This document shows, one piece after another, positions 2,128 through 21,377 of a stretch of DNA of 64,000 nt. The translations under genes and the position numbers were made by a program. The stretch lies in the NCBI GenBank assembly GCA_963719425.1, contig OY970382.1:742477-806476 (forward strand), in the 5' to 3' direction. Below the pieces are notes generated by a model that was not told the DNA's origin, searched no databases, and worked only from the letters and a program-made list of their open reading frames with translations. The DNA is from an uncultured bacterium. Lineage in GTDB: Bacteria; Patescibacteriota; Minisyncoccia; UBA6257; 2-01-FULL-56-20. Numbering within the stretch: position 1 is the first letter of the stretch; each line of letters begins with the position of its first letter.

Positions 2128-5100
2128 ACCTTCCGGAGTGCGACCCAGATTTCTTGATTTTCCAATTTCGCCATTTCCTCCGCGCTGAATTTTTCCGATC
2201 TTCCGTATTCAACCGATTTCGCGTTGACGGCGGAGCGGAGCGCTACTTCTTGCTTCATAATTGCATCCCGAGCGGCCGGAGGGAGATCAAGCATCAGCGC
2301 AATCTTATCCTTCGGCGCGAGTCCTGCTTTTTGCCGCAGTTCCTGAACCATCCGCGCGACTTCGCGCAGGATTCCCTCTTCGCGGAGCTCCGGTGTGATC
2401 GCAGTGTCAAGTTCAACTTCGCTTTCAATCGTCGGATCAAATATCACTTCCTTCACGTTTACCTCATCAGCCAAAACGCCACGCAAATCTTCTGCCACCG
2501 ATATCTTCAGGGTCGCATCTTTTATTGTGAGTTTACTGAGTGGCTGGCGGACCTTGATGCCGGCCTCCGCACGTTTCGCAAGCGCCAAGCTCGCCAAGCG
2601 CCTCACTTCCGCCATAGCATCGGTCAATTTTTTCCTCTCCACTCCGTCGAAAGAAACCTCTGGAATCGGCCACCCGGCGAGATGCACCGACTCAGCAGTT
2701 TCCTTGCTGCCGCTATACAGCTTCAATGTTCGGTACAGTTCTTCGGCAAGAAACGGCATGAACGGCGCTATGACCTTACTTACCGCAAGGAGACTTTCGT
2801 AAAGGGACCGATAAAAAGCGGCATCCTTCCGCTTGCGGCTGCGGCGGAGATACCACGTGGAAAGGTCATCAATATATTCCTGGATCGTCCGCGTCGCACG
2901 CACGGTATCATATGCCGAAAGACATCCGGTCACTTTTTCCACAAGCTCCGCCGTCCGGGCGTCAATCCATTGGTCAAGAACGTTCACCCCGGGGAGCTCG
3001 CTGCGTTTTTCGGACGCAAGCATCTTCGGATCAACATACGTCGTGAAGAACTTGCATACGTTCCACAGAATGACAACCACTTTCCGATAAACGTTCTCCA
3101 CAGCCTTCTCGGAAAAATTGATGTCGTCGGCCTGCATCACGACGGAATTCATGAGATAGAATCGCAAACTGTCCGCCCCGTATTTCCCGATCACGAGCTT
3201 GGGGTCCGGGAAGTTCCCTTTTGATTTGCTCATCTTTGAACCATCTTCCGCAAGGATATTCCCGGTCGTGACCACGTTTTCAAAGGGCGCCTTCCCGAAG
3301 AGGACGATGGCAATCACGTGCATCACGTAGAACCATGCCCGCGTCTGTGCGGTGTATTCCGCCACGAACTGTGAAGGGAACCGGCTCTCAAAAACTTTTT
3401 TGTTTTCAAAGGGATAATGATATTCGGCGAAGGGCATAGAACCCGCTTCCATCCAGGAATCAAAAATTTCCGGCGTCCGTTTCATCACGCCGCCACATGC
3501 GGGGCACGCGAACGTTATGCCATCAATGTACGGCCGGTGGAGATCTGCTTCTCCCCCGTCATTCCGCGGCACGATCTTGAAATCGAGCTTCCGTATCTCC
3601 GCAAAGCCGATAAAGTCGCCCTCCCGTTTTTTCTTTTCTTCAATCGCGCGCTCTTCGCTCCACCCCTCGGCCGCATGCACGAGCATCCAGCTCGGATACT
3701 CATGCGTCACGAGGAGAATATTTTTCCCTTTGTAAGTCGCTTCGCACTCGGCAAGGAAATTCCACACGCGGGCGCGGAGATCGCGCAGCGATTCGCCTTC
3801 CTCCGGCCGCTTTTCAAACCGGGCCTCGTACGTCGGGAAAAGCCCGAAATATTTTTTATCCTGGTAACCGGTGAGCGTTGGCCCCAGATGGATCTCCTCC
3901 AACCGCCCGTCAAACCGCACTTTTTCTCCCGTGAGCGCCGACGCAATAATGGCTTCGGTTTCCGCGGTGCGCGTGACATCCGAGGAAATTACCACATCCA
4001 ATTTCTCGCCGCGCTTCGCAAGCTCGGATTTGAAACGTTTGATCGCGTCCTTAACCTGTTTTTGACCGCGCGGCGTAAGATGCAAATACTTCCTTTGCCC
4101 CGAATCAACGATGTGGAACATATTGCTCTCCGCCTCCCCATGGCGCATCACCCAATAATTATTTTTTGCACTACCGGCGAGCTTTGACAACTCTTCCAAG
4201 CTGCCGACCGCCTCCTCGCGACAGCATCCGTCGCACTTCCAGACGGGGATTGGATTTCCCCAATAACGGTTGCGGGAAATATTCCAGTCCGGCGCCGCCT
4301 CCACGCTTTTTTCGTAGCGCCCGTGCTTGAGATACGCCGGAAACCAATTGATTTCGCGCCTATTGGAATCCAAAAGTTGCGGCTTTAATTTCTCCACGTT
4401 GATGAACCACGCCGGGATCGCATTGTAGAAAAGTATGTTGCCGCAACGCCAGCAATACGGATACGAGTGTGTATGTGCCTCGCGTTTGAACAACAATCCG
4501 CGATTTTGCAAGTCGTCTTTAATGATTTTTTCAGAATCTTTGAAGTATGTGCCGCGCACGAGTGGCGGCGCTTTCTCGTTAAAGATCCCCTTTTCGTCAA
4601 GCAGCGGCACAACAGGCAACCCCACGCGCACGCCGAGTTCGTAGTCCTCCTCGCCGTAGACGACCGCCGTATGCACCACGCCCGTCCCCTCTTCGGTCGT
4701 CACAAAATCCGCCGGGTAGACCTTAAAAGCCTTGTCGTTCCACGCCGCAGGAACGTCAAAAAGCGGTTCGTACTCTATACCGATTGCTTCGCGCGCCGAG
4801 AATTCGTCGAATTCCCGTTCCGGCAAGGACTCTTTTTTAGGAAGAACATCTTCTCCAGACAAGCGCTTGTAACTTTCCTTCTCCAAAACCAACCAGTGGT
4901 CTTTTTGATCAGGATCGGGCAAGCACACCAACGTATGCTCCGGGTTGACCGCTAACGCGACGTTGCCAGGTAATGTCCATGGAGTCGTGGTCCAAGAAAG
5001 AAAAGAGGTGTTCTGCCACGCAGGATTATCACTCTTCGCCTTAAATTTCACCATTACCGATTCCTCCGTCACGTCGCGGTAACTGTTATCCATCGCCACT

Positions 5101-11610: not shown

Positions 11611-11890
11611 TGCTTTAATTATAACAAATCAGAAACGGTTCGATTCCACTCGTCTCTTAGATATTTTGGGTCAAAAAAAGAGAAAACGACGCTCTGCAAG
11701 CGCTGATTCTGCTGGAGTCCCGATATCAAATAACCGTGGACGCAACGGCACTGCCACCGAACTATTTGATGCTATAGCCGAGAACGCCGAAGCAATGCAG
11801 ACATGGAACGCATTCGCGCAAGCGTTCATGGCCCAGGAACGCAAAGAGGACGCTCTATCTGTAACGCTTTGAGGTTGGTATAATCAGGGC

Positions 11891-14181: not shown

Positions 14182-14210
14182 TTGACACCAGAACTCTATT
14201 TTGGTAGAAT
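14182..14210 (+). promoter_or_regulatory. Near-consensus sigma70 promoter upstream of the DGR target gene
   Basis: TTGACA (14182..14187), 17-nt spacer, TGgTAGAAT extended -10 (14202..14210). Confidence 0.55.
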
Positions 14211-14340
14211 ATAGGGGTTCTTTAACAAGATAAAAATCAAGGTTTCAAACATACGCATGAGGCGAGTATTCAGCGGGCCGCGCAAGCCCTTTGAACACTC
14301 GTCTCATAACCTGAGCGGGTAGAAAAGGAGGATGATAACG

Positions 14341-15243
14341 ATGCCTACATCGATTACATCCAACATCACCGAAGGACAGAAGGAACTCTACGAGCGCGTC
14401 GTACGCGACGCTGCGAAACACGGCACCGCGCTTGCGCTCGAGAAGACCGGCGCAGACCAGGTTGGCTGGCAGCGCGTCATCGAAAACGGCGACGATCTCC
14501 GCGAAGCGATCGCGGCAACCATCGTGGCCAAAACCCTGGAGCTTTCAATCTCTAACCAGTTCGCCGACGAGGAAGTGGAGTCGAGCTACGGCTACCTGTC
14601 GGGCTATCGGAAGCCCAAGGGCGTCACCGAGCAGACGAACATCCTGCGTCAGCTTTTCCCCGGCGTCGGTTTCGCCGACGAGAAGATCGCGGAACAGCCG
14701 CTCCCGCCGAACACCGAAGGATGGTTCGCCATCCCGAAGTGGGAAACGATCGCCCCGACCTACGGCGAAGCGGTGCAGAAGGTGTTCGACATGATCAAGA
14801 AGACCCGAGGCGGCAAGTTCTACAACTGGCGCGAGGGCCAGCTTGGTCCGCAGTACCTTCGGCAATCCGCGAAGTCGGTCAAGGCGTTCCAGAAACTCGG
14901 CACCGAGCAGAAGGATCACGACATCCTCGTCGTTGCGGCGCAGTTCGGTCTACGTCACCGGGGCCGTTCGGTTCGCAGGGCGCGGGAAGTCATGAACGCA
15001 TCCGAGTTCGGTCTCGGTGCGTTCGCCATCGGGATCATGCTACTCACGCATCCCGAGCGTCTCAGGCACTATGACGATCTCTGGATCGACTGTGCCGGGG
15101 ACGAGTTCAGCTACGATGGCGATGGCCGGTTCGACAGCGCGCCGTTCTTCTACTTCGACGGCGTCGGGGTGAAGTTCGACGCGAGCGACGTTGCCTCTGC
15201 GCTCGCCCACTATGGCTCGGCGTCGGCTTCCGTTCCGCAGTAG
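14341..15243 (+). CDS. DGR target (variable) protein with a C-terminal variable repeat
   Basis: Strong SD AAGGAGG at 14325..14331. The last ~43 codons form the VR. No obvious signal peptide. Confidence 0.8.
   Translation: MPTSITSNITEGQKELYERVVRDAAKHGTALALEKTGADQVGWQRVIENGDDLREAIAATIVAKTLELSISNQFADEEVESSYGYLSGYRKPKGVTEQTNILRQLFPGVGFADEKIAEQPLPPNTEGWFAIPKWETIAPTYGEAVQKVFDMIKKTRGGKFYNWREGQLGPQYLRQSAKSVKAFQKLGTEQKDHDILVVAAQFGLRHRGRSVRRAREVMNASEFGLGAFAIGIMLLTHPERLRHYDDLWIDCAGDEFSYDGDGRFDSAPFFYFDGVGVKFDASDVASALAHYGSASASVPQ
15111..15240 (+). other. DGR variable repeat (VR)
   Basis: 130 bp, 111/130 identical to TR. All 19 mismatches correspond to A in TR. Confidence 0.85.
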
Positions 15244-15326
15244 ATTGAACCTTGATTGCTCGAGTGCTTGGGTCTTTTGATCCTCTTATCTTCTTGATCC
15301 CTTGCATTCGCGCGATTTTTTCCACA

Positions 15327-15357
15327 GGGGCTTCCGCACCATCATCGCGGCAGCCCC
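15327..15357 (+). promoter_or_regulatory. Hairpin downstream of VR (candidate DGR homing-associated stem-loop)
   Basis: ggggcttccgc / gcggcagcccc is an 11-bp stem with one mismatch and a 9-nt loop, ~85 bp 3' of VR. Confidence 0.45.
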
Positions 15358-15670
15358 TTTCTCTTTTCAGCTTCACAAAAAACATTTCCATTTATATACT
15401 TACAAGCGAGCATAGGCTAATGCACGGCCGTCCACGGATTGCCGTCGCCGAACTCTCTCTTCAAAAAAGAGATCCACAGCCAGAGTCCGGACGGTCACGG
15501 CTTTCCGGAGCGTGCTGCCTTGAGGAGATTACTGCTTGCCCCTGCCTTGTGCGGGTGTCCCGCGAGCGCGGGGCTGCTGCCGAATAAAATACAGGAATGA
15601 GAGGATATAGTTCCGCTGCCAGTGGGAAGTAACCCTCGAGATCCGGTGACGCGGACGGGCGGGAGCAATA

Positions 15671-15800
15671 CTACGATGGCGATGGCCGGTTCGACAACGC
15701 GCCGTACTTCAACTTCAACGACGACAAGGTGAAGTTCGACACGAACGACGTTGACAATGCGAACGACAACTATGGCTCGGCGTCGGCATCCGTTCCGAAG
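15671..15800 (+). repeat. DGR template repeat (TR)
   Basis: Non-coding copy of VR, same orientation. Adenine-rich, with AAC codons in the VR frame. Confidence 0.85.
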
Positions 15801-15814
15801 TTCCTCCTCAAGTG

Positions 15815-15840
15815 AAATGCCCCCTTCAGCGGGGGCATTT
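15815..15840 (+). promoter_or_regulatory. Perfect 10-bp hairpin immediately 3' of TR
   Basis: aaatgccccc-ttcagc-gggggcattt, placed between the TR end and the avd stop. Confidence 0.4.
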
Positions 15841-15842
15841 CT

Positions 15843-16190
15843 TTACTGTTTCACTGATCGTATCCACCCGCCGAGCATCCTGCCGATCTCGTCGATTGGA
15901 GCTTGGAGCGCGAGATACTTCTTTCCGTCGATGCCTCTTGTCTCGTGCATGAGACGGATGAAAACGCGAAGGAAGTTGAGTTTCACGCTCGCCCTCTCAA
16001 GCACCGGCAGCTTCTCGCTCTTGGACATCTGGCTGGCAGCCATGATGCCCTCAAGCACGTCGAGGATCATCGCGTCGCACCGTTGCCAGATGGTATAGCG
16101 GTCCTGCTTCGACATCGTGTTGCGATAGCTGTAAAACAGCTTGTAGAGATCGCAGGTCTTCTTGAAGATGGGAACATCAAAATCATCCAT
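15843..16190 (-). CDS. avd: Avd-like accessory variability determinant (four-helix-bundle / 23S rRNA IVS protein family)
   Basis: 115 aa. The C-terminal ...PIDEIGRMLGGWIRSVKQ resembles the Bordetella phage Avd C-terminus (EVGRILGSWIARVNRKGQ). Confidence 0.8.
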   Translation of the reverse strand: MDDFDVPIFKKTCDLYKLFYSYRNTMSKQDRYTIWQRCDAMILDVLEGIMAASQMSKSEKLPVLERASVKLNFLRVFIRLMHETRGIDGKKYLALQAPIDEIGRMLGGWIRSVKQ

Positions 16191-16198
16191 TAGCTTTT

Positions 16199-17239
16199 AT
16201 GAAGGTTTATAAAAACGCATTCGACCGTATTGCGTCTCTCGAAAATCTCTTTGCTGCGTGGAACGCCTTCAAGGGAAACAAGCGGAACAAGGATGACGTG
16301 CAGCAGTTTGAGCGGCACCTTGAGCAAAACATTTTCCAGCTGCATCGTGATCTCACGAGTGGGTCGTACCGGCACGGCCCGTATTACGGTTTCTACATTC
16401 ACGACCCCAAGCAGAGGCACATCCACAAAGCGTCCGTAAGAGACAGGGTTTTGCATCACGCGGTCGTATCGGTGATCAACCCAATGTTCGAGGAGGCCTT
16501 TATCCCATCCTCCTTCTCGTGCCGCGTTGGATTTGGCACGCACAAGGGCGTCGATGTCCTCGAAGAAATGGCACGGGCGGCGGCGGAGAACGGCACCGCA
16601 CCATGCTTCATTTTGAAATGCGATGTTCGGAAGTTCTTTGACAGCGTTGACCATGACGTCCTGCTCGGCATTTTGGGAAAGCGCATCAAGGACGATGCCA
16701 CGATAAATCTCATCACAGAAATCGTCGAGAGCTTCTCATCTTCCCGATCAAGCCTATTTGATCGCAAAGGGCTGCCGATCGGCAACCTCACGTCGCAGCT
16801 TTTCGCGAACACTTACATGAACGAGTTCGACCAGTTCATAAAACACGACCTCAAGGTGAAGCAGTACGCCCGTTACACGGACGACTTCGCCATCGTCGCA
16901 TCCGATCGCGCGTACTTGGAGAACCTGATCGAGCCGATCTCCCGCTTCCTGAATGACCGGCTTGCGCTTGAGCTGCATCCGAAAAAAATATCTATCGGGA
17001 AGCTGCATAATGGCATCGACTTCCTCGGATACGTCATGTTCCCGAGACATCGGCTTGTCCGGGCCAAAACGCGCCGCCGGATGTTCGCGAAGTTCGCGGC
17101 GAAGATAGCGGCGGTCCGCAGCGGAAGCATTTCCGAGGACTCTCTTATCGCTTCGCTCCGGTCATATCTCGGCGTCTTGTCGCACGCGGATGCGCATCGA
17201 TTGTCGGAGGACCTGAAGAACGGACTATGGTTCAACTAA
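16199..17239 (+). CDS. DGR reverse transcriptase
   Basis: 346 aa. LPIGNLTSQLFAN is the DGR-specific motif-4 signature, and YTDDF is the catalytic box. Confidence 0.9.
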   Translation: MKVYKNAFDRIASLENLFAAWNAFKGNKRNKDDVQQFERHLEQNIFQLHRDLTSGSYRHGPYYGFYIHDPKQRHIHKASVRDRVLHHAVVSVINPMFEEAFIPSSFSCRVGFGTHKGVDVLEEMARAAAENGTAPCFILKCDVRKFFDSVDHDVLLGILGKRIKDDATINLITEIVESFSSSRSSLFDRKGLPIGNLTSQLFANTYMNEFDQFIKHDLKVKQYARYTDDFAIVASDRAYLENLIEPISRFLNDRLALELHPKKISIGKLHNGIDFLGYVMFPRHRLVRAKTRRRMFAKFAAKIAAVRSGSISEDSLIASLRSYLGVLSHADAHRLSEDLKNGLWFN

Positions 17240-19119: not shown

Positions 19120-19439
19120 GGTTGTGTGGTTGGTTGAAAAAACAAACGCCCCTCGCGCGGAGGAGCTTTCATCGACCAAAAAGCCCACCACGTGGGTGAG
19201 GGCTTTCGCCCTCCACACCGGTTTCCCGATGTGGCTGATCAGAGCAATCCCACATGATGGGGTTTTTAGCTCTGATCAGACTTCTTGTGCCATGCCGGGC
19301 ATTGCTGTCACGGTTTAGGCTACTGATTAAGTTGTGATTAGATATTACAATACTCCGGAGCATTTGCGAAGCATCGCCGATTTTGAAGCTACAGGAGCCC
19401 CCCTCAACTCTTCGAGGATAATCCGGTATAGTTCAGAAT

Positions 19440-21095
19440 ATGGCAACGCCAACAAATCCCGAGGAACTGCTTGAGGCACTTCGCCCATTGCAGATTAATG
19501 AAGACGAGGATGAGGAAAAGCGGCGAAAATGGCGTTACGTGATATACGCGAGAAAATCTACCGACGACAAGGACAAGCAAGTCCGTTCGCTCCCAGATCA
19601 GGTGCACGATTGTCAGGAGTTCGCGGCGGAACACAATCTCCATGTTGGTCTCAAGGACATCATCCAAGAAGCCGAATCGGCGAAAGAACCCGACATCCGG
19701 CCGAAGTTCCGTGCGATGATCGAAGATGTAAAGCGCGGGAAGTATGACGGCATCATCGCGTGGCATCCCGACCGGCTCGCGCGCAACATGAAAGACGCTG
19801 GTGAAATCATTGACCTCATCGACAAGCATATTATAAAAGACCTCCAGTTCAAGAGTTTCACGTTCACGAATGATCCAAGCGGCAAGATGCTACTCGGCAT
19901 CACCTTTGTTCTCGCAAAACAGTATTCCGAACAACTCGGCGTGAGCATCTCGCGCGGCAACCGACGGAGCATCGAGGAGGGGAAATATGTTGGCCGCACA
20001 AAGCACGGCTATTACAAAGACTCCGACCAATATCTCCGACCGGATGGTCAGAACTTCATCCTGATCAAAAACGCATTCCGGATGCGCATTGGGGGCTCGA
20101 CCTACGAACAAATCGCTGATTACCTCAACGCAAATGGGTATCAGCATGCACGGCGCGACGGCACTCACGTTCTGTTCAAAATGAATCTCAAGCGGGTTGA
20201 GAACTTCATGCGAGACACCGTCTATAGCGGAGTCATTGTGTACGGCAAGAAAGGCGGGGCCGTGAACCTCACAAAAATATACGACTTTCAACCAGCGATC
20301 AGCGTGCCGGATTTCATGAAAATCTATCACCTCGACAAAAAGGGATTCATGCGTCTTGCGAGAAAAAATCGACGCCAAGAAGATATAAAAGCAAGCCTCC
20401 TGCGAGGCATAGTGATTTGCGCGGCATGCGATGAGGTAATGTCGGCTGGCATCACACCAAAGCAAAACAAGGGAAGAGTCACACGATATTTTTACTACCG
20501 CTGCGACAATGAGGATTGTTCACGACACGACAAGTCGGTGCGGGCAAAGGTAATCTTGGATTACGCGAAGGAGTTCCTTGAAAAGAAACCATTCTCCTCG
20601 AGAAAGGCCTACAATCACTATGCCGAAGAAATGCCGCGGGTGGCGGCAGAGCGCGAGCGCGAAACGCGACTTCTTCTCGCAGGACAGAAAAATAGGAAGC
20701 TCCACCTCGAGAACAAGTTGGCCAAGCTGGAAGAGGGCCTCATGTACGAGGAAGACGAGGGTATAAAGGCTCTCTATCGCCGGGACAAGCCGACAGTGGA
20801 GGGCGATGTTAGAGGGGTTGATGCAGAAATCGACAGGCTTGAGGGCAAACTGAAGGCCGGAAAGACGGCCATACTCACATACACGGAGTTTCTCGAACTA
20901 ATGGAGAAAATGGGGGAAATGCTGACCTCCAAGACACCCATGAAGGATTTGGACGCGATCATCAGAAAAGTGTTCTCGAACTTTACCGTAAGCGCAAAAA
21001 AGGTAGAGAAATGGAGCCTTGCCGCGCCATTTGATGCGCTTTACGACCCCAAAATGACGAATGGTGGAGACGGGCGGAATCGAACCGCCGTGTAA
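19440..21095 (+). CDS. Large serine recombinase (phage-type serine integrase)
   Basis: 551 aa. YARKSTDDKDKQVRSLPDQ resolvase catalytic motif, recombinase domain, Cys zinc ribbon (CAACDEV...YYRCDNEDC), C-terminal coiled coil. Confidence 0.85.
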   Translation: MATPTNPEELLEALRPLQINEDEDEEKRRKWRYVIYARKSTDDKDKQVRSLPDQVHDCQEFAAEHNLHVGLKDIIQEAESAKEPDIRPKFRAMIEDVKRGKYDGIIAWHPDRLARNMKDAGEIIDLIDKHIIKDLQFKSFTFTNDPSGKMLLGITFVLAKQYSEQLGVSISRGNRRSIEEGKYVGRTKHGYYKDSDQYLRPDGQNFILIKNAFRMRIGGSTYEQIADYLNANGYQHARRDGTHVLFKMNLKRVENFMRDTVYSGVIVYGKKGGAVNLTKIYDFQPAISVPDFMKIYHLDKKGFMRLARKNRRQEDIKASLLRGIVICAACDEVMSAGITPKQNKGRVTRYFYYRCDNEDCSRHDKSVRAKVILDYAKEFLEKKPFSSRKAYNHYAEEMPRVAAERERETRLLLAGQKNRKLHLENKLAKLEEGLMYEEDEGIKALYRRDKPTVEGDVRGVDAEIDRLEGKLKAGKTAILTYTEFLELMEKMGEMLTSKTPMKDLDAIIRKVFSNFTVSAKKVEKWSLAAPFDALYDPKMTNGGDGRNRTAV

Positions 21096-21377
21096 AGGTA
21101 ATGCGCGTGGGCCGTCTACGGGCGTGTCTAGTGGAACACTAGCAACGCGATCCTAGTTTTCGCGCGCGGTATAGGATCATCCGCCGCGGCTAGTCCCCTT
21201 ATATAAGACCGGCTGTGAGCCCAAGGAACCCGGACTCGCCGATCCCGGCATTACGCGTAAGCGAACGCCGGAGCTGTAACTCTATTAGAGTTGGCAGTTA
21301 TGTTTTGTGCGGCAGTTACGTCGTCGCCCTCGGCCCGCAAACCCACTGCTTGCCCTTATCAAAGCCAGTGCGTCCCC
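21062..21377 (-). ncRNA. ssrA: Probable tmRNA (ssrA)
   Basis: 3' end GGCGG-UUCGAUU-CCGCC CGUCUCC A CCA (T-arm, acceptor, CCA). 5' GGGGACG pairs with it 316 nt upstream. CUGGCUUUGAUAAGGG resembles the conserved tmRNA 5' motif. Internal tag ORF GCC AAC ... = ANSNRVTAPAFAYA then UAA. Confidence 0.55.

Follow-up and report, generated by a model that had tools for sequence, protein, structure and literature searches.

A covarying leader RNA upstream of the template repeat, and its possible bearing on the inverted avd gene, in a B3-type diversity-generating retroelement

How can a diversity-generating retroelement (DGR) work when its avd gene is turned around between the template repeat (TR) and the gene for the reverse transcriptase (RT)? 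The question is raised by a locus on contig OY970382.1 (GCA_963719425.1), of which a stretch of 64 kb was analysed (the window; all coordinates are window positions). On sequence evidence the locus is a bona fide DGR, as it combines adenine-specific mismatches between TR and the variable repeat (VR), a bAvd-family gene and an RT of the DGR clade. TR and VR form a near-repeat of 131 nt each with 85% identity, and all 19 mismatches are at an adenine of TR (TR-A to VR-N) and affect chiefly the first and second positions of codons; the pattern appears to be the historical A-to-N footprint of adenine-mutagenic cDNA synthesis and retrohoming. The best solved relative of the RT is bRT of phage BPP-1 (8ub7_A, E = 1.9e-47, residues 3-335, including the N-terminal extension), with group II intron RTs matching well behind it and the retron Ec83 RT far more weakly, and the avd product shows a weak match to BPP-1 Avd (PDB 4dwl). 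Avd (accessory variability determinant) is an accessory protein that most DGRs have, though not all. The BPP-1 DGR (mtd-avd-TR-brt; Handa et al. 2018, PMC6182149) shares with the window a homologous RT and Avd and adenine-specific transfer from TR to VR, whereas in the window avd is inverted and the TR RNA is not contiguous with RT. An earlier reading of the letters alone (the sequence-only reading) had placed avd on the minus strand between a TR and an RT on the plus strand, with start codons 8 bp apart and "tagctttt" between them, and the sequence bears this out; avd does end next to TR, at 41 nt from the TR end to its stop codon rather than 43 bp. We found that TR is preceded by an apparently undescribed, strongly covarying RNA element, and this leader offers a possible rationale for the inverted avd.

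To compare the locus with its relatives, we used 80 fetched loci whose RT is 45-65% identical to that of the window, out of at least 581 relatives in a genome scan. The fetched loci come mostly from metagenome-assembled genomes (MAGs) labelled Patescibacteria or candidate phyla radiation (CPR), plus two contigs of one Nanoarchaeia MAG; the closest RT relatives (57-65% identity) are mostly in MAGs labelled Patescibacteria/Parcubacteria, with L002 labelled Gammaproteobacteria and L001 labelled "bacterium". The stretch between the target gene and TR (15244-15670) had been called a 430-nt non-coding stretch, which is close to its 427 nt, but the conserved structure in it was missed: it holds a conserved promoter and a structured RNA of ~260 nt. 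In the aligned relatives the sequence ahead of TR is strongly conserved at the nucleotide level and has evident compensatory changes; of the 52 pairs predicted by RNAalifold, 43 show such changes. R1, a covariance model built on the leader, gives exactly one match per locus in 73 of 81 sources, always on the TR strand and ending at the TR start; its sole match in the window is at 15409-15673 (230.9 bits, E = 1.2e-59), and of the eight sources with no match seven are truncated upstream and the eighth is L064. In the alignment fitted to R1 (A3), 95.3% of cells are paired as compared with 40-50% when the partners are slid (score 0.761 versus 0.12) and 48 of the 52 pairs have changed on both sides, although fitting to the model inflates pairing, a reservation to be set against the very large margin. 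All 11 pairs of helix P4 covary (98.5% paired), and this helix lies 3 nt from the conserved ACU and ends 3 nt before TR. Moreover, TR/VR homology begins within -5 to +2 nt of the end of the R1 model in 53 of 59 loci. The leader helices (Table 1) are rich in G-U pairs, which assigns the structure to the plus strand. A GC hairpin noted earlier near 15560 exists as 15557-15563/15568-15574 with a GAGC loop, the 2-nt loop assigned to it not being feasible, and it is the tip of conserved helix P5. A 4-bp pairing of leader "AGCC" with TR "GGCT", suggested by RNAalifold, was weak and confounded with the VR subfamily, and was dropped.

No Rfam 15 family, retrons included, matches 15250-16250 at E <= 10, and a whole-window scan at gathering thresholds gives only transfer-messenger RNA (tmRNA), LOOT RNA and tRNA; nor did we find a description of the leader RNA in the searchable literature on DGR RNA structure, covariation and circular permutation. 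The two Nanoarchaeia contigs (L044 and L046) carry the same leader RNA at 84-91 bits, and the leader RNA thus crosses the divide between bacteria and archaea along with the DGR. The 427-nt stretch also contains two open reading frames (ORFs) present in a mechanical ORF list (15252..15587 and 15439..15600), which might be taken to encode a small protein. This is hardly credible, because compensatory pair changes, G-U pairs and loop indels of all lengths fit an RNA, and ORF 15252..15587 has a TTG start and crosses both the terminator and the promoter; a coding reading was rejected on the covariation, the G-U pairs and the loop indels.

It is also evident that the leader pairs with the 3' flank of TR. 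When all leader segments were scanned against this flank, a single segment showed higher stability of cognate than of non-cognate duplexes (p about 2e-6). Compensatory change in this long-range helix is extensive among the relatives, for example GGAUAGAG/CUCUAUCC and CCGGUGUGAGGAG/CUCCUCACCGG, and a permutation test on 36 dissimilar representatives gave p <= 5e-5. On a structure-naive MAFFT alignment, 80% of the helix is paired as compared with 41-52% for slid partners. The unconstrained minimum free energy (MFE) structure of 15407-15852 recovers the long-range helix, P6 and the terminal hairpin, and the comparative model of the same segment lies only 2.5 kcal/mol above the MFE. With P4 at its 5' end and the long-range duplex at its 3' end, TR is therefore delimited by helices at both ends.

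The order of these elements can be compared with that of the BPP-1 RNA as given in a cryo-electron microscopy (cryo-EM) preprint (10.1101/2023.10.23.563531). The BPP-1 RNA has a template-primer duplex between TR and the spacer (Sp) at the TR 3' end, followed by 2 nt, an 11-bp stop duplex, a short stem-loop, GAA, a 13-nt single-stranded "thumb ring" and a long RT-binding stem-loop; the 11-bp duplex joins Sp to a segment just upstream of TR and stops cDNA synthesis, and an 11-bp Avd-binding stem-loop lies immediately 3' of TR (10.1101/2023.10.23.563531). The window RNA runs from the duplex strand to ACU, then GCU, P4, P5, CGAA with AUAAAAUACA, P6, the P4 partner, TR, the duplex partner and an 11-bp hairpin. 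The two RNAs have in common a duplex between the TR 3' end and the primer strand (found in silico in the window), an 11-bp duplex at the TR 5' end placed 2-3 nt past the primer strand (P4 in the window), a stem-loop, an A-rich single strand and a long stem-loop on the non-template strand, and a stem-loop of ~11 bp 3' of TR. Opened between its Avd stem-loop and its primer strand, the BPP-1 RNA would show the order of the window RNA, which has P1-P3 in addition. The window has no spacer domain between TR and RT; the structured, Sp-like domain is 5' of TR, whereas BPP-1 Sp is 3', and the avd stop follows TR after 41 nt. For this reason we describe the window RNA as one that works like, but is permuted relative to, the BPP-1 RNA and not as a member of the BPP-1 type, and R1 is not applicable to BPP-1 itself, since a linear covariance model is unable to match an RNA that is permuted.

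Topology and sizes, and these only, suggest that the leader is the functional counterpart of BPP-1 Sp in circularly permuted form. If so, the strand ending in GAGGAGAUU-ACU would be the primer strand and the GCU after it a short linker; P4 would be the "stop" duplex that ends cDNA synthesis at the 5' edge of TR; P5 would be the small stem-loop, the near-invariant single strand AUAAAAUACA a thumb-ring-like element, P6 the RT-binding stem-loop and the terminal hairpin the Avd-binding stem-loop. The 9-bp long-range helix and the 3-bp ACU:AGU helix would clamp the TR 3' end to the leader, with the 11 bp of P4 ending 3 nt before TR. The msr-msd RNA of retrons is also a structured RNA beside an RT gene with template and priming elements and paired ends; retrons, unlike the window, lack a TR/VR pair, Avd and adenine mutagenesis.

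The layout itself is not peculiar to this locus. Architecture B3, defined as TR-(avd)-RT with avd on the reverse strand and the target on either strand, accounts for 90% of CPR DGRs (Wu et al. 2018, NAR 46:11, PMC5758913), and the window has the B3 core order of TR (+), avd (-) and RT (+), with order and orientation identical and no difference in layout. Among the 80 relatives avd was detected in 76, and in each of these it runs opposite to RT with the two gene starts abutting; two of the four loci with no avd match are truncated at the RT start. A TR/VR pair could be detected in 59 loci, and in all of these except L056 TR shares the strand of RT and shortly precedes the avd stop. Among the 42 closest relatives, the gap between TR and avd is ~40-50 nt in most, and the distance between the avd and RT start codons ranges from -2 to +20 nt, cases of overlapping CATG included. 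To judge from its gene order, the window is a typical B3 member, already catalogued and odd only relative to BPP-1, and the earlier description of an unusual DGR layout is not upheld. The paper on Architecture B3 (PMC5758913) does not discuss promoters, terminators or the structure of RNA around TR, and the leader RNA and the long-range helix are what is added here. In four relatives (L007, L031, L032 and L040), two VR copies accompany one TR, giving two target genes per cassette.

We moderately favour the view that the locus is a functional, CPR-typical B3 DGR in three expression units, the leader being a circularly permuted counterpart of the BPP-1 Sp RNA. The first unit would be the target gene with its own promoter and terminator (hairpin 15326-15358). 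The second would be an autonomous TR RNA of ~440 nt, starting near 15407 and ending near 15850, made from a promoter at 15372-15400 and consisting of the folded leader of ~260 nt and TR, with the terminal hairpin stopping both this RNA and the convergent avd mRNA. The third would comprise avd and RT, transcribed divergently and acting on the TR RNA in trans. Since all needed RNA elements lie 5' of TR or immediately 3' of it, no connection between TR and RT would be required, and avd could sit inverted between them.

Several observations on transcription bear on this three-unit view. A -10-like hexamer lies 7-8 nt upstream of the R1 model start in 31 of 67 loci. A complete module is found in L056 on the opposite strand to RT and downstream of avd, with leader, TR and hairpin at 4068-4407 (minus strand) and a -10 box before them, which argues that the TR RNA is an autonomous unit acting in trans. 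The 8-nt gap between avd and RT leaves no room for intergenic promoters, and the promoters of these two genes must overlap coding sequence, or else the mRNAs must be nearly leaderless. The sequence-only reading had concluded that each promoter must lie inside the other gene or that RT is co-transcribed with TR; its argument from lack of room is sound, but co-transcription is disfavoured by the -10 box of the TR unit itself, by the terminator-like hairpin and by the L056 module opposite RT. The sole recurring feature of the promoter scans for avd and RT is a palindrome, TTTATAAA, in RT codons 3-5 (16206-16213 in the window), and on the minus strand it would form a TATAAA box ~17 nt upstream of the avd ATG. 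It may be the -10 element of a short-leader avd mRNA, or it may merely reflect the M-K-I/V-Y-K coding and codon usage of AT-rich genomes.

A contrary view is that a single transcript runs from TR to RT, antisense through avd, in which case the hairpin after TR would be an RNA-protein binding element or an attenuator and Sp-like elements would be in the antisense-avd RNA. It could appeal to BPP-1, where the RNA elements sit downstream of TR and Sp lies between TR and brt, as well as to the weak T-tail after the hairpin in some loci and to scans in which no RT promoter was found. We nevertheless hold such read-through to be quite unlikely. The covarying partner of the TR 3' flank is upstream in the leader and not downstream; the hairpin, next to the avd stop, resembles a bidirectional terminator in its A-tract, stem and T-tract; the need to encode Avd limits the antisense-avd sequence; and L056 has its RNA module on the strand opposite RT.

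The hairpins themselves had been recognized in the sequence-only reading. Perfect hairpins of at least 10 bp number 5 in the 64-kb window as compared with ~0.3 in shuffles. The one between TR and avd, reported as a perfect 10-bp hairpin at 15815..15840, has 11 bp and spans 15814-15841; its GC-rich stem and the T-run behind it have the sequence features of a Rho-independent terminator. A hairpin is present at the TR-avd gap in all 42 relatives with a gap of at least 25 nt, with 6-17 bp (mean 12) and unrelated sequences; it is usually A-rich on the 5' side and T-rich on the 3' side, and in most it ends 0-5 nt from the avd stop. These features suggest that it is probably a bidirectional terminator of the TR RNA and the avd mRNA. 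Like known bidirectional Rho-independent terminators, it has an A-tract, a perfect GC-rich stem and a T-tract between convergent units; it differs from them in that one of the units is a non-coding template RNA, and its stem may double as a protein-binding element. Because putative Avd-binding stem-loops lie just downstream of TR in 207 of 278 Avd-encoding DGRs (Handa et al.), the hairpin possibly has a second role as an Avd-binding stem-loop.

The hairpin after VR, given earlier as 11 bp at 15327..15357 and ~85 bp past VR, does start 85 nt past VR, with coordinates of 15326-15358 and one mismatch. Its likening to the BPP-1 homing stem-loop does not hold up. It likewise has the sequence features of a Rho-independent terminator, and in the relatives a stem with a T-run lies ~85-100 nt from VR and is followed at once by the -10 box of the TR RNA. 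Because of its distance from VR, its T-run, its place in the relatives and the TR-RNA promoter directly behind it, this hairpin reads as an intrinsic terminator of the target gene and not as a BPP-1-like homing hairpin. An ordinary account would go further: both hairpins would be Rho-independent terminators, one for the target gene and one for avd, with nothing DGR-specific about them, in a known B3 cassette (PMC5758913). Both do consist of a stem followed by a T-run, and both are conserved in position and not in sequence. For the first hairpin this account is compatible with the three-unit view and offers no contrast to it. The second, however, is fixed directly after the long-range helix, and the 11-bp Avd stem-loop 3' of TR in BPP-1 leaves room for a second role; the structured leader is left unexplained. 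We take the ordinary account seriously as a possibility, without favouring it.

How the target would be recognized can be approached from the 3' ends of the two repeats. A fixed TR/VR difference is found at 15798/15238, being TR A and VR C in most subfamily-1 loci and TR C and VR A in subfamily 2, so that information at 15798 is not transferred. It behaves like a maintained donor/recipient difference, as opposed to random mutagenesis, and would mark the 3' limit of transfer in the manner of IMH*/IMH (initiation of mutagenic homing). In the window TR/VR homology stops 3 nt past this fixed mismatch, whereas in BPP-1 it extends through a long IMH, and no long GC-rich IMH is evident at the 3' boundary of TR/VR. 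A GC-rich inverted repeat downstream of VR/IMH, as in BPP-1 and Legionella, is present in only 34% of DGRs (Wu et al. 2018, PMC5758913) and is not required of a DGR. Directly 3' of VR the window has no such repeat, its nearest hairpin being the one 85 nt off with a T-run; in place of the BPP-1 hairpin, an array of YTTGR pentamers and then the terminator follow VR. In the 59 loci YTTGR occurs 3.36 times per 75 nt after VR as compared with 0.47 in shuffles, and the array is strand-specific, its units being spaced preferentially by 8 nt or a multiple of this. It lies after VR whatever the orientation of the target gene relative to TR. It could be a target-recognition element, or a source of stop codons in all frames.

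Besides the inflated pairing in A3, a number of points weigh against the permuted, three-unit view. The outer long-range pairs become weaker when the unfitted MAFFT alignment is used, with helix 1 only 75% paired. The priming nucleotide is not identifiable, and the difference at 15798 does not pin the initiation site. When the coding regions of avd and RT were each scanned for a promoter of the other gene, with full sigma70 (-35/-10) or -10-only motifs, no position recurred consistently; the T-tail after the TR-avd hairpin is modest in several relatives; and the start, end and termination efficiency of the TR RNA are predictions. Handa et al. reported putative stop duplexes and Avd stem-loops in many DGRs, among them those of CPR, from no more than 40 nt of sequence upstream of TR, and their assignments for CPR elements may differ from ours. 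The correspondence with BPP-1 is one of topology and sizes, with no sequence similarity behind it, and P1-P3 have no BPP-1 counterpart. These last two points, together with the lack of conservation of the G after the putative primer in subfamily 2, would also suit a leader that is a real DGR RNA but not a permuted Sp, for example a scaffold, a stability element or a ligand- or protein-sensing switch of TR RNA levels, with priming from the terminated 3' end or from target DNA. We consider this rather unlikely, since TR is bounded exactly by a helix at either end, six elements agree with BPP-1 in order and size, and the RT is homologous to bRT over its full length, N-terminal extension included. 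The features on which the permuted reading draws are collected in Table 1.

Table 1. Positions of the DGR features and of other elements in the window
Feature	Position	Strand	Details
Target promoter (near-consensus, sigma70-like, extended)	14182-14210	+	TTGACA-17-TG-TAGAAT
Target gene	14332..15243	+	303 aa; VR at 3' end of ORF
VR	15111..15241	+	3' end of target ORF
YTTGR pentamer array	15251..15297	+	just 3' of VR; at 15251, 15267, 15276 and 15293
Candidate target-gene terminator	15326..15368	+	stem 15326-15358, 11 bp, one 1x1 mismatch, -20.6 kcal/mol, then TTTCTCTTTTC
TR RNA promoter (predicted)	15372..15400	+	TTCACA-17-TATACT; -10 at 15395-15400
Conserved structured leader of TR RNA	15409..15670	+	covariance model R1, comparative helices
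P1	15415-17/15447-49 and 15425-33/15436-44	+	leader helix map
P2	about 15456-61/15467-72	+	leader helix map
P3	15477-80/15514-17 and 15486-96/15499-509	+	leader helix map
Long-range strand of leader	15519-27	+	pairs with 15804-12
ACU	15531-33	+	pairs with AGU 15799-801
P4	15537-47/15657-67	+	11 bp
P5	15551-59/15572-80	+	leader helix map
Conserved single strand	15581-93	+	CGAA then near-invariant AUAAAAUACA; 13 nt in all
P6	15594-604/15634-44	+	51 nt with internal loops
TR	15671..15801	+	131-nt repeat of VR
3' partner of long-range duplex	15799..15812	+	AGU 15799-801:ACU 15531-33; 15804-12:15519-27
TR-avd hairpin and T-rich tail	15814..15851	.	11 perfect bp (15814-15824/15831-15841), 6-nt loop, then TTTACTGTTT; terminator scan
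avd	15843..16190	-	115 aa; Pfam bAvd E 2.2e-15, above gathering score; convergent with TR, divergent from RT
avd/RT start-codon gap	16191..16198	.	8 nt "tagctttt"; CAT 16188-16190, ATG 16199-16201
DGR reverse transcriptase	16199..17239	+	346 aa; RVT_1 E 1.1e-23
LOOT RNA (Rfam RF03000)	19198-19321	-	86 bits; between 432-aa ORF and serine recombinase

Pfam and NCBIfam searches gave no family for the target protein and most of the neighbouring ORFs, and homologues of the target adjoin related DGRs in the fetched loci. VR ends at the stop codon of the target gene. Upstream of its start codon (14182-14331), the target gene has a 5' untranslated region of ~120 nt with an 11-bp hairpin (14257-14267/14297-14307) ahead of a GGAGG ribosome-binding site. 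Further out, an inverted partial copy of the tmRNA 3' end (GGTTCGATTCCACTCGTCTC...ATTTTGGGTC) is found at 11634-11670 (+) versus 21062-21105 (-), 9.4 kb from the tmRNA gene. The interval between the two copies contains three small ORFs, the DGR, a DUF3761 protein, a 432-aa protein, LOOT RNA and a large serine recombinase (19440-21095), the 3' end of whose gene overlaps the tmRNA 3' end. By its arrangement this interval looks like an integrated or invertible island carrying the DGR.

What is new here is a leader RNA model for the class of DGR that dominates candidate-phyla bacteria, the layout itself being already known. The model gives the RNA defined ends, a covariance model that matches once per locus, two helices that delimit the template and a rationale for the inverted avd. 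We extend it only tentatively, being almost evenly divided on the point, to the B3 DGRs of CPR and DPANN as a whole, the largest cellular DGR lineage. In these a permuted DGR RNA would carry the primer strand, the stop duplex, the thumb-ring-like strand and the RT-binding stem-loop upstream of TR, with P1-P3 added; it would be a self-contained gene from promoter to terminator acting in trans, and an 8-nt-periodic YTTGR array would serve target recognition instead of the BPP-1 IMH and hairpin. If the permutation is true, the mechanism seen by cryo-EM in BPP-1 would extend to a very different gene arrangement. It would also offer a compact, trans-acting template RNA for engineering, and TR with its exact boundaries could be annotated in metagenomes from the RNA alone.

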